A DNA stretch of 36,292 nucleotides from a virus. Position numbers and translations under genes: made by a program. Below, piece after piece: positions 2,967-31,105 of this stretch; position 1 is the first letter of the stretch; every line of letters starts with the position of its first letter. The notes under the pieces were generated by a model. That model searched no databases, had not been told where the DNA came from, and was given only the letters and a program-made list of their open reading frames with translations. The stretch lies in UHGV virus genome UHGV-0154029; one strand, 5' to 3'.

Positions 2967-3398
2967 TTAATCTTGCTTTGTGGACGGTATAAGGGATGCG
3001 TTTGCCTCTTTTGGCTTCAAGGTATACATCCCACCATTAAATGGATCAACAGCAAGCCAACCAATTAACCCACCAAACACAAGGTTTCCACCAATATACC
3101 AACCATTAGCATTGGCTTTGATTGGCAGGGTAACTGGTTCGTACCCATCCTTTTCCATAGTGATCTGGTAACTCTTTTTGCCAAAATAACTACCATCTGA
3201 CTTGGCAAGAGTTACTCCTTGTGGGGTCTTACCTTGCGCAACAATCACGCCTGATTCGTCTTTTACCTTAAAGCTCGCACCGGAAGGATTGCTGTTCACT
3301 TGCACAAGCTGTGTTTCGTCACCAACAATAGTTGCGCACCCAGATAACATGATAGCGCCAGCAACGACGCTAATAATCCTCTTCATATCAATTTCCAT
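2967..3398 (-). CDS. Lipoprotein (lipobox LSGC), moron at the P22 sieA position; candidate superinfection-exclusion factor
   Basis: ORF MEIDMKRIISVVAGAIMLSGCATIV...: signal peptide plus lipobox L-S-G-C; the true start may be the second Met (3386). Located between the gp16-like ejection gene and the immI module. Confidence 0.7.
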   Translation of the reverse strand: MEIDMKRIISVVAGAIMLSGCATIVGDETQLVQVNSNPSGASFKVKDESGVIVAQGKTPQGVTLAKSDGSYFGKKSYQITMEKDGYEPVTLPIKANANGWYIGGNLVFGGLIGWLAVDPFNGGMYTLKPKEANASLIPSTKQD

Positions 3399-20500: not shown

Positions 20501-20576
20501 TGGTGCTGGTTAACGGACTTGAACCGCTACCCATTCGCTTACAAGGCGACTGCTCTACCATTGGAGCTAAACCAGC
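20501..20576 (-). tRNA. tRNA, anticodon UGU (Thr) by manual folding
   Basis: Minus-strand 76-nt sequence GCTGGTT-TA-GCTC-CAATGGTA-GAGC-A-GTCGC-CTTGTAA-GCGAA-TGGGT-AGCGG-TTCAAGT-CCGTT-AACCAGC-A-CCA: perfect 7-bp acceptor stem, D and T arms, encoded CCA. Confidence 0.65.
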
Positions 20577-20581
20577 ATATT

Positions 20582-20656
20582 TGGCGGGACAGCGTGGACT
20601 CGAACCACGATAAGAAGGTTAACAGCCTTCCGTAATGACCTTTATACGACTGACCC
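20582..20656 (-). tRNA. tRNA-like gene, anticodon GUU (Asn) by manual folding; possibly degenerate
   Basis: Minus-strand 75 nt GGGTCAG...GAAGG-CTGTTAA-CCTTC-...CGTGG-TTCGAGT-CCACG-CTGTCCC-G-CCA: good T arm and anticodon arm, but a U-U mismatch in the acceptor stem and a weak D stem. Confidence 0.45.
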
Positions 20657-26564: not shown

Positions 26565-26712
26565 GTTTCACCCCTGCTTTGGCTAGTCTGTAAACACCAA
26601 CAAGGCGCTCTGCGAACGCCCTGTTATTTGCTGCGGCTACCACTAATCCCTCAGGTGAATCAGGGTGTCGAATCTCTTCTTTTTCCTGGTATTTCTTACG
26701 ACGTTTTGTCAT
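26551..26712 (-). CDS. Possible small basic protein (53 aa) between cII and the O-like gene
   Basis: Not in the ORF track. [56 protein letters not shown] with RBS AGGAG 6 nt upstream; stop overlaps the O-like start. Confidence 0.3.
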   Translation of the reverse strand: MTKRRKKYQEKEEIRHPDSPEGLVVAAANNRAFAERLVGVYRLAKAGVKHGRR

Positions 26713-26744
26713 AATTACTCCTGTGGATTGATCCAGTAATTCCC

Positions 26745-27041
26745 TCAGAATTCCATCTGGATTTGTTCAGAACGCTCGGTTGCCGCCGGGCGTTTTTTAT
26801 TGGTGATTCCATCAAGCGCATACTTAAAAGCCCTGCTAATCGGACTGATGTCTGATGCCATTCCGAAAGCACACAAGACCGAAGCAATAAACCGCCAGTC
26901 CGTTCTGCTTATCTTCGATTCATGACAGCCAATCATCTTTGCCAGACCGCGCTGGGTAAGCGTTGACAGGTTGATGAGTAAATCAGTTTCTGCGCGATCA
27001 ACGTCGCGCTGTGATAGTTTGCTGTAACTTGTTTGTTCCAT
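26745..27041 (-). CDS. cII: CII-like transcriptional activator
   Basis: 98 aa; C-terminus ...ITNKKRPAATERSEQIQMEF is identical to the lambda CII C-terminus; N-terminal HTH differs. Confidence 0.85.
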   Translation of the reverse strand: MEQTSYSKLSQRDVDRAETDLLINLSTLTQRGLAKMIGCHESKISRTDWRFIASVLCAFGMASDISPISRAFKYALDGITNKKRPAATERSEQIQMEF

Positions 27042-27094: not shown

Positions 27095-27129
27095 ATTAAT
27101 TAGTTACCGCGTTGTCGGCGGTGCAGATT
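27095..27129 (-). promoter_or_regulatory. nutR-like site (boxA CGCTCTTTATCAA plus boxB hairpin with GACAA loop)
   Basis: Minus strand between cro and cII: CGCTCTTTATCAA, then ACCGCCGACAACGCGGT. The GACAA loop is P22-type. Confidence 0.5.
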
Positions 27130-27150
27130 GATAAAGAGCGGATCCGCTTA

Positions 27151-27366
27151 TTAAGCGGCTTTGTGTTCCGGCGGGAACACGTCATCAAGACTGACTTTTG
27201 CGCCTAACTTGTTTAGGCACGCAACAAGAGCACGGCATGTTTTAAGGTCTGGGAAGCGACGACCAGATTCCCAATGTCCGATAGCTCCCTGTGTGCATCC
27301 AACCGCCTTAGCAAGTGTTGTTTGAGAGATATTCAGTGACTCTCGATATTTTCGTAGGTTGCTCAT
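27151..27366 (-). CDS. cro: Cro-like repressor, all-alpha HTH type (71 aa)
   Basis: ORF-track entry trimmed to MSNLRKYRESLNISQTTLAKAVGCTQGAIGHWESGRRFP... (RBS GGAGGG); its recognition helix QGAIGHW parallels QGGIGHW of the adjacent repressor. Confidence 0.8.
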   Translation of the reverse strand: MSNLRKYRESLNISQTTLAKAVGCTQGAIGHWESGRRFPDLKTCRALVACLNKLGAKVSLDDVFPPEHKAA

Positions 27367-27477
27367 ATGCCCTCCATAGTAACCATGAAACAATAATACG
27401 ATATGTACTTTTGGAATGCAAACAAAAAATACATCTTGTGCATGGATGGTTTTAGTACATAGCGTAATAATAAGGAT
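27367..27477. promoter_or_regulatory. OR region with divergent PR (toward cro) and PRM (toward repressor)
   Basis: Minus strand: TTGCAT - 17 bp - TATTAT upstream of cro, with AGTACATATCGTATTAT in the spacer/-10 region, near-identical to AGTACACATCGTACTAT at PL; further ATGTACT/AGTACAT half-site-like elements. Confidence 0.55.
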
Positions 27478-28137
27478 ATGAAAATGAAATGGTATGAACT
27501 GGCTAGATCCAGAATGAAAGAGCTCGGCATAACTCAAGAGAAGTTAGCTGAAGAACTTGGTATGACGCAGGGTGGAATTGGTCACTGGTTGCGCGGATCT
27601 CGTCATCCATCTCTTGACGAGATTGGTGTGGTGTTTAAATACCTTGGTATTGATAACGTCTCATTCAACCACGACGGTACATTTTCACCTGCTGGCGAAT
27701 ACTCATCTGCCCCCGTTAAAAAACAATATGAGTACCCTGTTTTTTCTCATGTTCAGGCCGGGATGTTCTCGCCTGAGCTTAGAACCTTTACCAAAGGTGA
27801 TGCGGAGAGATGGGTCAGCACAACCAAAAAAGCCAGTGATTGTGCGTTTTGGCTTGAAGTTGAAGGTAATTCCATGACCGCACCAACAGGATCCAAGCCA
27901 AGCTTTCCTGACGGAATGTTAATTCTCGTTGACCCTGAGCAGGCTGTTGAGCCAGGAGATTTCTGCATAGCCAGACTTGGCGGTGACGAGTTTACCTTCA
28001 AGAAACTGATCAGGGATAGCGGTCAGGTGTTCCTACAACCACTAAACCCGCAATATCCAATGATCCCATGCAATGATAGCTGTTCCGTAGTAGGGAAAGT
28101 TATCGCCAGCCAGTGGCCTGAAGAGACATTTAGTTAA
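27478..28137 (+). CDS. cI: Immunity repressor: non-lambda HTH N-terminal domain fused to lambda cI-like S24 peptidase C-terminal domain
   Basis: 219 aa; the C-terminal ~135 aa ([134 protein letters not shown]) is near-identical to lambda cI; the N-terminal 70 aa is different. Start may be the second ATG (27484). Confidence 0.9.
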
Positions 28138-28169
28138 CAGCCTCACCACTCTAAAACACACAACAATAA

Positions 28170-28197
28170 CCCGACCTTAGCGTCGGGTTTTCTTTTT
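28170..28197 (+). terminator. Intrinsic terminator after the repressor gene
   Basis: Hairpin CCCGAC-CTTAGC-GTCGGG followed by TTTTCTTTTT. Confidence 0.6.
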
Positions 28198-28262
28198 CCA
28201 AAATATAAATCAATAAAATACAAAGTGTTATAAAAAACTAACCACATTTAGAACATTTTGTA

Positions 28263-28291
28263 TTGACTCAATAAAGTACACATCGTACTAT
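28263..28291 (+). promoter_or_regulatory. PL-like promoter with overlapping operator
   Basis: TTGACT (28263-28268) - 17 bp - TACTAT (28286-28291); inverted repeat AGTACACATCGTACT (28275-28289) overlaps the spacer/-10. Confidence 0.55.
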
Positions 28292-28336: not shown

Positions 28337-28371
28337 GGCTCTTTAACTTCGATGGGGCGCTGACAAAGCGC
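28337..28371 (+). promoter_or_regulatory. nutL: boxA (GGCTCTTTAAC) and boxB hairpin GCGCTGACAAAGCGC
   Basis: boxA-like 28337-28347; boxB 28357-28371 with 5-bp stem and GACAA pentaloop as in P22 nutL; upstream of N. Confidence 0.7.
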
Positions 28372-28490: not shown

Positions 28491-28799
28491 ATGACGGTAA
28501 TCGTGTACGGGAAATCAACATTTGCAGGAAATGCCAAAACTCGCCGTCATGAGAGGCGCAGAAAGCTGGCTATCGAGCGTGATGCTATATGCAACATCAT
28601 CGATTCGATCTTCGGCACAGACAGTGAGGAACCTGTTCAGGAAGCCCCGAGAAAACGTTTAATCCTTTCTGAAAAAGCAATATCACTCGGCAACATTCGT
28701 AACCAAAATACCGACGAATGCAGTGGAAGTATTTGCCTGCCAAACGTAGCTCTTTACGCGGCAGGCTACCGGAAATCAAAACAACTGACAGCCAGGTAA
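28491..28799 (+). CDS. N: N antiterminator, P22 gene 24-type
   Basis: ORF-track entry 28407 (GTG) trimmed to MTVIVYGKSTFAGNAKTRRHERRRKLAIERDAICNIIDSIFG... with the arginine-rich motif; the C-terminus ...LYAAGYRKSKQLTAR resembles P22 N. Confidence 0.85.
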   Translation: MTVIVYGKSTFAGNAKTRRHERRRKLAIERDAICNIIDSIFGTDSEEPVQEAPRKRLILSEKAISLGNIRNQNTDECSGSICLPNVALYAAGYRKSKQLTAR

Positions 28800-29027
28800 G
28801 TGATGAATCAGACATACATTCCATCATGCTTGAGAAATCTGCCAAAGCAGAAAGCAAAGCCCCGCAAGCAAGCCATAAAGGACGCTAAGGCAGAGGTTAT
28901 TGATCAAGCAATACAATTGCTCAGGGAGGAGCTAAGAAGTGGCAAGCTCGAAGGAATGATGATGCCATATCAGCGCGGATATCTATCGGCGATTAGTAAG
29001 TTGGAAGTATTGAAGAGTGAATTATGA
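28800..29027 (+). CDS. Small basic hypothetical protein (about 74 aa)
   Basis: ORF directly after N; likely start ATG at 28803; Lys/Arg-rich N-terminus and predicted helical C-terminus. Confidence 0.45.
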   Translation: MMNQTYIPSCLRNLPKQKAKPRKQAIKDAKAEVIDQAIQLLREELRSGKLEGMMMPYQRGYLSAISKLEVLKSEL

Positions 29028-29089
29028 ACTATCTGGAATTTCCGGATGGTTCATTGTTTTGGCAGCAAACCACTTATTTGAGGTGATAT

Positions 29090-29539
29090 ATGGAAGAACA
29101 AGCAAACAAGATTCTCGTAGAACTACTGAAAAAAGCCAGTAATGGAATAGACGTGGCTGTTTCATTTAGCCAGGCACAGATTCCTGATGTTGTTCATCAG
29201 TTGCTGCTATGGAATATGGTTGAAAGTCTGATTAAAACATTAATTGCCATTCTAACAATCCCACTGGTTTTCTGGTTTATGAAGAAGCAGTGCCAAAGAG
29301 TTGAGACAGGTAAAATAGGTGGTGAAGGATACTCATGGGAGAGGGGAAATCCCAAATACAGGCCGACAATGGTTTGGGATAGCAAAGGAGATATTAACAT
29401 TCTTATCATGCCATTGGTTGGAGTTTTGACTCTGTGGGGGATTTTTATTATTGGTGTAGTAACCAATATGACTTGGTTAAAAATCTGGCTGACCCCAAAG
29501 CTTTACCTTATCGAATATGCAGCATCATTGGTTAAGTAA
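29090..29539 (+). CDS. Two-TM membrane protein (149 aa); candidate superinfection-exclusion/abortive-infection factor
   Basis: Hydrophobic segments LIKTLIAILTIPLVFWFM and INILIMPLVGVLTLWGIFIIGVV; lies in the N-cIII accessory zone where lambda/P22 carry sieB. Confidence 0.6.
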   Translation: MEEQANKILVELLKKASNGIDVAVSFSQAQIPDVVHQLLLWNMVESLIKTLIAILTIPLVFWFMKKQCQRVETGKIGGEGYSWERGNPKYRPTMVWDSKGDINILIMPLVGVLTLWGIFIIGVVTNMTWLKIWLTPKLYLIEYAASLVK

Positions 29540-29688
29540 TTTCAGGACGCATAGTCGGCCTTTATTTTTGGCATAAACAACAGAATAAACACAGCACTGT
29601 GTATTCATTCCAACGAGTGAATACACGGAGCAATGTCGCTCGTAACTAAACAGGAGCCGACTTGTTCTGATTATTGGAAATCTTCTTT

Positions 29689-29716
29689 GCCCTCCAGTGT
29701 GAGGGCGATTTTTTTC
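29689..29716 (+). terminator. Intrinsic terminator (tL-like, presumably N-suppressed) upstream of the acidic-protein gene
   Basis: Hairpin GCCCTC-CAGTGT-GAGGGC followed by GATTTTTTTC. Confidence 0.55.
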
Positions 29717-29733
29717 TGTGAGGATATGAATAG

Positions 29734-30102
29734 ATGTCAAACATCAAAAAATACATCATTGATTACGACTGGAAAGCATCAATAGAAATTGAAATCGACC
29801 ATGACGTAATGACAGAGGAAAAACTTCACCAGATTAATAATTTCTGGTCAGACTCTGAATACCGACTCAATAAACACGGCTCTGTATTAAATGCTGTATT
29901 AATCATGCTGGCGCAACATGCTCTGCTTATAGCAATTTCAAGCGACTTAAATGCATATGGTGTTGTGTGTGAGTTCGACTGGAATGATGGAAATGGTCAG
30001 GAAGGATGGCCTCCAATGGATGGTAGCGAAGGAATAAGAATTACCGATATCGATACATCAGGAATATTTGATTCAGATGATATGACTATCAAGGCCGCCT
30101 GA
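29734..30102 (+). CDS. Acidic hypothetical protein (122 aa)
   Basis: RBS GAGGA; strongly Asp/Glu-rich (EFDWNDGNGQEGWPPMDGSEGIRITDIDTSGIFDSDDM); no family recognised. Confidence 0.6.
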   Translation: MSNIKKYIIDYDWKASIEIEIDHDVMTEEKLHQINNFWSDSEYRLNKHGSVLNAVLIMLAQHALLIAISSDLNAYGVVCEFDWNDGNGQEGWPPMDGSEGIRITDIDTSGIFDSDDMTIKAA

Positions 30103-30136: not shown

Positions 30137-31105
30137 ATGAGTGAAGTAACAGATTTAGTTGTTATTGAGAAAGCAAATGCAATGACTGTATTTCAGTCTG
30201 CCGACCAGATTGAAGAAATCCTTCAAAAGGTTGAACGTGAAGTTATGTCCTTTGTGCCTGATATCACAACGGCAAAGGGCAGAAAGGAGATCGCTTCTCT
30301 GGCGTATAAAGTTGCGCAGACGAAAACATATCTCGATGGTCTTGGCAAAGACCTTGTTGCTGAACTGAAGGAAATTCCAAAGCTAATTGATGCCAACCGC
30401 AAGACAGTGCGCGATCGCCTTGATGAGCTGAAAGCCAGGGCACGCCAGCCTCTTACTGATTATGAAGAGGAACAGGCGCGGATTAAAGCTGAAGAAGAAG
30501 CTAAGGCAGCAGCTGAAGCTCTCGCAAAGAAAATTGAGTCTGACCATGAAATAGCGATTTTGATGGATCGCGAATTTGACCGCCAAAGAGAAGAGGCAAG
30601 ACTCAAAGCTGAGCAGGAAAGGCGAGAGCATGAAGAACGCTTAAAAAAAGAAGCTGAAGAGAAAGCCAGAGCAGAAGCCGAAGCAAAGGCAAAAGCCGAA
30701 ATTGAAGCAGCAGCAAGGCGAGAAGCAGAAGCTAAGGCCGCAGCGGAACGTGCAGAGCGTGAACGCATTGAAGCCGAGCAACGAGCACAGCGCGAAGCAA
30801 AAGAGGCAGCAGAACGAGCTGAAAGAGAAAAGCAGGCGGCAATTGAAGCAGAACGCCGAAAAGCACAGGAGGAGGCTGAACGAATCCGGCGCGAGGCTGA
30901 AGCAAAAGAGCAAGCCAGAATAGCAGAAGAAAAAAGAATCAAGGACGAAGAAGAGCGTAGAGCAAAGGATAAAGCTCACCGGAAAGAAGTAAATAACAAA
31001 ATACTTGCTGACCTTATCAAGGTTGGCGCATCAGAAGATGTTGCTAAAAATATCATAACAGCCATCGTAAAAGGCGAAGTATTCGCAACAAAAATAACCT
31101 ACTAA
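30137..31105 (+). CDS. ER/K-rich coiled-coil (single-alpha-helix-like) protein with globular N- and C-terminal regions (322 aa)
   Basis: Central ~150 aa is a low-complexity run of E/A/K/R (AEEEAKAAAEALAKK...EAEAKAKAEIEAAARREAEAKAAAERAERERIEAEQRAQREAKEAAERAEREKQ...). Confidence 0.65.
   Translation: MSEVTDLVVIEKANAMTVFQSADQIEEILQKVEREVMSFVPDITTAKGRKEIASLAYKVAQTKTYLDGLGKDLVAELKEIPKLIDANRKTVRDRLDELKARARQPLTDYEEEQARIKAEEEAKAAAEALAKKIESDHEIAILMDREFDRQREEARLKAEQERREHEERLKKEAEEKARAEAEAKAKAEIEAAARREAEAKAAAERAERERIEAEQRAQREAKEAAERAEREKQAAIEAERRKAQEEAERIRREAEAKEQARIAEEKRIKDEEERRAKDKAHRKEVNNKILADLIKVGASEDVAKNIITAIVKGEVFATKITY

Follow-up and report, generated by a model that had tools for sequence, protein, structure and literature searches.

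Does the immunity region of the viral genome UHGV-0154029 encode a new repressor specificity, created by joining a foreign DNA-binding domain to the scaffold of the lambda repressor cI? This was proposed in the initial annotation of positions 27367–28137 of a 36,292-nucleotide stretch of this genome, hereafter the window. We find, with a probability of about 0.9, that a P22-like E. coli prophage has its immunity switch in this region and that the switch is of the already described VT2-Sakai/Sp5 type, i.e. the type of the Shiga-toxin (Stx) phage 'CI clade I', Nil2 and Stx2 phage II. The observation behind the proposal is confirmed, and there is partial support for its interpretation: a mosaic does exist, but neither a new nor a recent one.

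The interval begins at the base right after the cro start codon and therefore consists of the rightward operator region (OR) and the repressor gene of the prophage. The cI open reading frame (27478–28137, plus strand) encodes 219 residues with two Pfam domains, a helix-turn-helix (HTH) domain HTH_3 (aa 11–58, E=8e-11) and Peptidase_S24 (PF00717; aa 87–209, E=9e-29), and is transcribed divergently from cro. An alternative start, the ATG at 27484, gives 217 residues (MKWYE...) as annotated for Nil2, while a TAG in the upstream frame (MDGFST-stop) precludes here the 231-residue reading of AP005153 and Dewey. We infer a Shine-Dalgarno sequence before the ATG at 27484, and a leaderless transcript from the repressor promoter PRM. 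The cro gene (27151–27366, minus strand) encodes 71 residues and also belongs to HTH_3 (Pfam E=4e-12).

Both proteins have close full-length relatives in phages with a described immunity. cI is identical to the repressor of the Stx1-converting phage AP005153 at 211 of 219 positions (96%), Nil2 having the same sequence, and to that of VT2-Sakai at 210 of 219 when the in-frame stop of the latter record is read through. Cro is identical to that of AP005153 and Nil2 at 71 of 71 positions. In AP005153, putative operators and promoters are annotated at exactly homologous positions, and Table S1 of PMC10742460 lists these six sequences as VT2-SA OR1-3 and OL1-3. Each operator of the window has one or two substitutions relative to these, most of which fall in the centre (positions 7–11), and the same specificity is therefore expected. 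The claim of a new immunity specificity has to be given up: the repressor over its full length, Cro and the complete set of six operators correspond to those of VT2-Sakai/Sp5, the Stx1-converting phage, Stx2 phage II and Nil2, which is the outcome that the initial annotation had named as refuting; the operators of this described type are themselves annotated as putative.

Between 1999 and 2003 this immunity type was described in VT2-Sakai and other Shiga-toxin phages, and records deposited from those years onward contain the same cI, Cro and operators (AP000363, Nil2 AJ413274, AP005153 and AP005154). The stretch from cro to cI, in part reaching toward the leftward operator region (OL), has matches in 191 phage records. 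A query of 1,241 bp has matches over at least 80% of its length in 749 of 5,426 complete E. coli genomes and in 61 phage records. PMC10742460 credits Fattah et al. 2000 with the finding that VT2-Sa CI has high homology to lambda CI in its C-terminal part and low homology in its N-terminal part, and in PMC8951638 the VT2-Sakai-type CI belongs to clade I, the clade nearest to lambda CI.

Two observations were made on these records. In the VT2-Sakai record AP000363, the glutamine codon with which the recognition helix begins, CAG in the window, reads TAG (locus 3085–3087, equivalent to 27568–27570 of the window), and the record therefore annotates only a truncated cI of 169 residues; possible causes are a natural defect, a mutation acquired in the laboratory and an error of sequencing. 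Further, two assemblies of about 4.83 Mb labelled E. coli DH5alpha (NZ_CP026085.1 and NZ_CM135829.1) have a copy of the region with 99.8% identity, and so has E. coli W. The prophage is unexpected in a K-12 derivative and the DH5alpha labels may be wrong.

Six putative 17-bp operators, three in OR and three in OL, share the half-site consensus wA(G/A)TAC(A/G). OR1 (27394–27410, TAATACGATATGTACTT) overlaps the -10 element of the rightward promoter PR and is homologous to the operator AAATACAATATGTACTT annotated in AP005153, i.e. VT2-Sa OR1. OR2 (27427–27443, AAATACATCTTGTGCAT), centred at about -43 from the cI ATG at 27478, and OR3 (27453–27469, TAGTACATAGCGTAATA), which overlaps the putative PRM, are homologous to the OR2 and OR3 annotated in the same record. 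On the other side of cI, OL3 (28216–28232, AAATACAAAGTGTTATA) and OL2 (28249–28265, TAGAACATTTTGTATTG) likewise have annotated homologues in AP005153, and OL1 (28274–28290, AAGTACACATCGTACTA) is a perfect AGTAC-N5-GTACT palindrome. The initial annotation had named only two sites, and both exist: AGTACACATCGTACTAT is found at 28275–28291 (OL1) and its reverse complement AGTACATATCGTATTAT at 27393–27409 (OR1). They are not lambda operators, as it had stated, and operators of the lambda type, with TATCACCGC-type half-sites, are not found in this region.

The operator motif is enriched over shuffled sequences. With at most one mismatch, AGTAC-N5-GTACT occurs three times in the 36 kb, always in OR or OL, versus 0.29 expected, and none of 100 shuffles reaches three. 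Of the five matches to a looser consensus (0.49 expected), four lie in OR or OL. A consensus scan places a PR-like promoter (27393–27422, minus strand; TTTGCA-18-TATTAT) that reads into cro, overlaps OR1 and sits as the PR annotated in AP005153, and a PL-like promoter (28263–28291, plus strand; TTGACT-17-TACTAT) that overlaps OL1 and OL2. From centre to centre the operators are spaced by 33 bp (OR1-OR2), 26 bp (OR2-OR3), 25 bp (OL1-OL2) and 33 bp (OL2-OL3).

The two domains of cI differ sharply in their relation to lambda. The C-terminal self-cleavage and oligomerisation domain (aa 84–219; 27727–28137, plus strand), which lies in a DNA block homologous to lambda, is identical to lambda cI at 133 of 136 residues (98%), in agreement with the near-identity first reported, and the lambda counterpart has solved structures. 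The cleavage site A94-G95 and the catalytic residues S132 and K175 are all present, and cI has both the HTH domain and the Ser/Lys-dyad S24 domain of self-cleaving phage repressors of the LexA/lambda-cI type. The N-terminal DNA-binding domain with the linker (aa 1–83; 27478–27726, plus strand), hereafter the head, is of the VT2-Sakai type and distantly like phage L c2. It is 94–95% identical to the heads in Stx-phage records, 51% to SPN9CC, 46% to phage L c2 and only 21% (17/81) to lambda. The description of this head as unrelated to lambda holds for this low identity but is too strong, since the head belongs to the same HTH_3 fold family, its helix-turn-helix can be aligned to lambda ELGlSQEsvAdkmGMgQsGvGalfnG, and the lambda repressor head structure 1lli is a weak match (E=0.003). 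HK97 cI is of the lambda-immunity type; HK022 cI was left out of the repressor comparison, and tblastn matches of the head to HK630, mEpX2 and HK140 (60.6%, aa 8–40), where the gene was not resolved, were not used.

The recognition helix of the head, TQGGIGHW, recurs almost unchanged in Cro (TQGAIGHW, continuing as TQGAIGHWESG), as the initial annotation had noted, and the lambda-type helix QSGVGALFN is not found. Over 62 residues, Cro has 35% identity to the cI head (E=6e-13); its identity to phage L Cro is 69% and that to lambda Cro 30%. The suggested all-alpha nature of Cro is borne out by the HTH_3 assignment and by an AlphaFold2 model (pLDDT 84) with helices at residues 3–11, 15–22, 26–33, 41–54 and 60–63 and no strands. 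The predicted fold is thus a five-helix, 434/P22-like HTH_3 fold. In the PDB, Cro matches 28tn_A, a solved 82-residue "lambda repressor-like protein" (E=4.5e-17), and only weakly the P22 C2 and 434 repressor heads.

A recombination junction inside the repressor gene, the central point of the initial annotation, is clearly visible in the DNA. Positions 27727–28131 align to lambda 37637–37233 with 94.3% identity over 405 bp (blastn), and no homology is found directly upstream. The step from no detectable identity to 94% falls at codon 84 (YEYPVF), within a single codon, in the hinge just 5' of the Ala-Gly cleavage site. A second block homologous to lambda (26705–26806, equivalent to lambda 38693–38592; 94.1%, blastn) covers the 3' end of cII and the oop region. 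These two larger blocks flank a heterologous core of about 920 bp that extends from the cI head through OR, cro and nutR into the 5' part of cII, which is the classical shape of an immunity substitution. It can be noted that cII itself is mosaic with respect to lambda: its last approximately 20 codons and the oop region are 94% identical in DNA, while the remainder of the protein presumably differs from lambda cII, judged by eye. In AP005153 the cII homologue is annotated as HK022 CII-like. A search at the 5' end of cII for the tetranucleotide repeat of the lambda and P22 kind (XXXX-N6-XXXX) gave no convincing candidate from which to place PRE.

Between the tails, i.e. the C-terminal domains, of the window and lambda there are 22 synonymous and three non-synonymous codon differences. 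The exchange of head and tail is not recent, because the tail alleles of the window, the Stx phages and lambda differ by 6–8% in nucleotides and are about equidistant (91.5–93.7% identity).

Domain-wise identities of head and tail were computed for 120 database homologues of cI. Among these, tails of the lambda-like class (at least 79% identity) occur with no fewer than four types of heads. Window-type heads (P0002–P0007; head 79–87%) and the heads of the SPN9CC group (about 51%) both occur with tails of 79–85% identity, lambda-type heads (P0054, P0061, P0069 and others; 64–70% to the lambda head) occur with tails of 82–86%, and a fourth type (P0053, tail 88–90%, and P0106) has the nearest non-lambda tails. 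Conversely, P0027 combines a window-type head (82%) with a tail of only 58%. In P0106, an E. coli protein of 214 residues, the tail is diverged up to approximately residue 120, and from AFWLEVEG onward every residue agrees with lambda cI, which marks a second and different recombination breakpoint inside the tail. Reassortment of heads and tails is therefore common in this repressor family, and the lambda-like tail is a shared module that has been combined with several heads through more than one breakpoint.

These comparisons also bear on the direction of the exchange. Window-type and lambda-type heads both have full-length relatives that diverged together with the tail. This symmetry means that neither the head nor the tail partner can be assigned as 'foreign', and the picture of a foreign DNA-binding domain on a lambda scaffold is therefore not upheld. 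It is possible, though we would not favour it, that lambda is instead the recombinant, the pairing of an L/SPN9CC/VT2-Sakai-type head with the 'lambda-like' tail being the older one and the lambda head having joined later. The many full-length relatives in Enterobacterales that pair a window-related head with this tail (P0002–P0007 and the SPN9CC group) are in line with such a history. However, the lambda-type heads of P0054, P0061, P0069 and others have diverged along with the same tail class, the data are symmetrical, and the identity values place the tails of the window and lambda nearer to neither family.

It is very unlikely that no recombination took place, i.e. that the gene descends vertically from an ancestor shared with lambda cI, with a tail frozen by purifying selection and a head that diverged fast toward a new specificity. 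Purifying selection on the tail is certainly strong, as seen in the ratio of synonymous to non-synonymous codon differences, and tails are better conserved than heads in every head family. However, synonymous sites in the tail are conserved as well (94% identity in nucleotides), while 5' of 27727 DNA similarity is undetectable, the step falling within a single codon. The tail tree is also incongruent with the head types, as the tails of P0053 and P0106 are found on a third type of head besides those of the window and lambda, and in P0106 the switch to full lambda identity lies elsewhere. We rejected vertical descent on the ground that synonymous sites are conserved only downstream of 27727. 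Finally, a newly arisen chimera, with a foreign domain grafted on lambda cI and a previously undescribed specificity, is scarcely credible: the junction with lambda is sharp and real and the head and operators are non-lambda, but the phage records from 1999–2003 onward and hundreds of E. coli genomes have the same cI, Cro and operators, PMC10742460 already gives the pattern of domain homology, and the event is old, given the divergence of the tail alleles, and has no assignable direction.

The reading that remains preferred is an old mosaic repressor of the VT2-Sakai/Sp5 immunity type, and we suggest that the switch works as follows. Dimers of cI would bind the six pseudo-palindromic operators in OR and OL through the N-terminal HTH with its TQGGIGHW helix and would shut PR and PL. 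From OR2, given its position relative to the cI start, cI could activate PRM and hence its own synthesis. Cro, with nearly the same recognition helix, would compete for the same operators and shut off the synthesis of cI. The C-terminal domain would provide the dimer and tetramer contacts as well as the self-cleavage at Ala94-Gly95 by Ser132/Lys175, stimulated by activated RecA (RecA*), and since the tail is 98% identical to that of lambda, SOS induction should resemble that of lambda. The conserved flanks may let homologous recombination swap the co-adapted unit of head, operators and Cro as a cassette.

Several points weigh against this account of the switch. Its statements on operator occupancy, activation of PRM, cooperativity and RecA-dependent cleavage are all inferred from lambda. 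The operators of the reference records are labelled 'putative', and our search found no accessible paper in which the cognate CI or Cro was bound to them; it returned electrophoretic mobility shift assays of lambda CI on VT2-SA operators and CI-typing papers. In the former (PMC10742460), lambda CI, the only CI tested there, binds the VT2-SA operators weakly, with an apparent dissociation constant (KDapp) of 3.7–6.4 uM versus 0.2–3 uM for its own. The total of the promoter scan is not above that of shuffled sequences. Further, the 33-bp spacings of OR1-OR2 and OL2-OL3 differ from those of lambda, 24 and 20 bp, respectively (OR 24/23 bp and OL 24/20 bp in all), and for OR1-OR2 the pairwise cooperativity known from lambda can therefore not simply be assumed. 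The spacing of OR2-OR3 and OL1-OL2 is lambda-like, so the cooperative wiring may differ from that of lambda. As an observation, the non-lambda operator spacing coexists here with a cooperativity domain that is 98% lambda-identical, while phage L has the same layout and a P22-class tail.

As a discovery the locus carries little weight, being a textbook case of lambdoid mosaicism with the junction at a domain boundary. The same immunity type controls the induction, and hence the toxin release, of clinically important Stx2 phages (Sp5/VT2-Sakai), and it also circulates on stx-negative P22-like prophages, which would be homo-immune with Stx phages of the Sp5 type. A more doubtful and rather improbable consequence, suggested by a tail 97–98% identical to that of lambda and by the occurrence of this tail class in other E. 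coli repressors, is that hetero-immune prophage repressors could form mixed dimers or higher oligomers in one cell and so cause cross-talk between prophages. If true, this could lead to mutual destabilisation, to coupled induction or to the partial lambda/VT2-Sa 'cross immunity' credited to Fattah et al.

The surroundings of the switch are those of a P22-like short-tailed prophage. The best matches of the window as a whole are HZ41, IME10, Louie, Dewey and Salmonella phage SPN9CC, a near-identical relative is integrated beside the tRNA-Thr gene adjoining proA, and no stx gene is involved. After cro follows a gene for a cII-family activator (26745–27041, minus strand; Pfam Phage_CII E=3e-34), the 3' end of which is the lambda-identical part. 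Between them lies nutR (27106–27140, minus strand), with boxA CGCTCTTTA at 27132–27140 and the P22-type boxB ACCGCCGACAACGCGGT at 27106–27122, a match to the annotated P22 nutR sequence. On the other flank, cI is followed by an intrinsic terminator, OL and the N gene. nutL (28338–28371, plus strand; boxA GCTCTTTAA, P22-type boxB GCGCTGACAAAGCGC) is nearly identical to the annotated P22 nutL, and the N antiterminator (28491–28799, plus strand; Pfam N_peptide E=7e-40) has the arginine-rich motif of the P22 gp24 type by alignment with P22 gp24.

The terminator (28168–28189, plus strand) was located by a terminator scan directly after cI. Its homologue in lambda follows directly after rexB, positions 28160–28195 matching lambda 35834–35799 at 89% (blastn), and rexA and rexB are therefore absent. 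The stretch 28138–28215 lacks both genes, and Stx-phage relatives have several small open reading frames, including orf22, between cI and OL.

Farther away, adjacent tRNA-Thr(TGT) and tRNA-Asn(GTT) genes (20501–20656, minus strand) are flanked by the Q-antiterminator region and the lysis genes, in the position that tRNAs and stx occupy in Stx phages. Just 3' of N, three small genes (28800–30102, plus strand) encode 75, 149 and 122 residues and all match PHROGs of unknown function; hydrophobic stretches seen by eye suggest that the 149-residue product is a membrane protein. In P22, sieB/esc and ral are found at this position. The PL operon also contains a 322-residue open reading frame (30137–31105, plus strand) with a long, charged and repetitive centre rich in Ala, Glu, Lys and Arg (EAKAKAE..., ERAERE...), which matches phrog_1376 and phrog_21365, both without known function.

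Among known systems, the VT2-Sakai (Sp5) group (AP005153, AP005154, Nil2, 2851 and the PA-series phages) is the reference for this switch and shares its recognition helix, Cro, operator positions and spacings, lambda-like tail and cII family. In contrast to that group, the switch is here part of a short-tailed, P22-like prophage that lacks stx, its N gene and nut sites are of the P22 type, and cI is directly followed by the terminator and OL, without orf22-type genes. It also differs by about 7% in nucleotides and by the stop that closes the upstream ATG of the 231-residue annotation. The closest relatives in sequence are Dewey, Louie, vB_EcoP-683R2, vB_EcoP-720R6, phi458 and prophages of E. 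coli W and many other strains, which have the same compact layout and are 97.4–99.9% identical in nucleotides over cro-cI-OL. Their flanking replication and early genes are mosaic; in Dewey, for example, they include genes for an HNH endonuclease and a DnaC-type loader.

Salmonella phage L is a member of the family to which the head, Cro and operators belong. Phage L has operators of the same family (TAATACATTTCGTACTA, AAGTACATTTTGTATTG), an OR spacing of 34/26 bp (compared locus 1416–1492), a related Cro and the recognition helix TQGAIGHWLNG in its c2 head. However, its repressor tail is of the P22 class, 70% identical to P22 c2 and 47% to the tail of the window. Lambda shares with this switch the tail with the cleavage site and the Ser/Lys dyad, the arrangement of 3+3 operators of 17 bp, divergent PR and PRM, OR2 at about -43 from the cI start, the block of the cII C-terminus and oop and the terminator after the operon. 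It differs in the head, in its half-sites (TATCAC-type in lambda, TAGTAC-type here), in a Cro that is alpha+beta rather than, as predicted here, all-alpha, in the OR1-OR2 spacing and in the presence of rexA and rexB.

The separation of functions between the two domains also has a laboratory parallel. Around 1994, Hochschild and colleagues reportedly made hybrid repressors by swapping heads and tails among lambda, 434 and P22. In these hybrids, as would be the case here, head and tail are separable, the head setting operator specificity and the tail cooperativity and cleavage. The hybrids were engineered, whereas the cI of the window is a natural and widespread allele.

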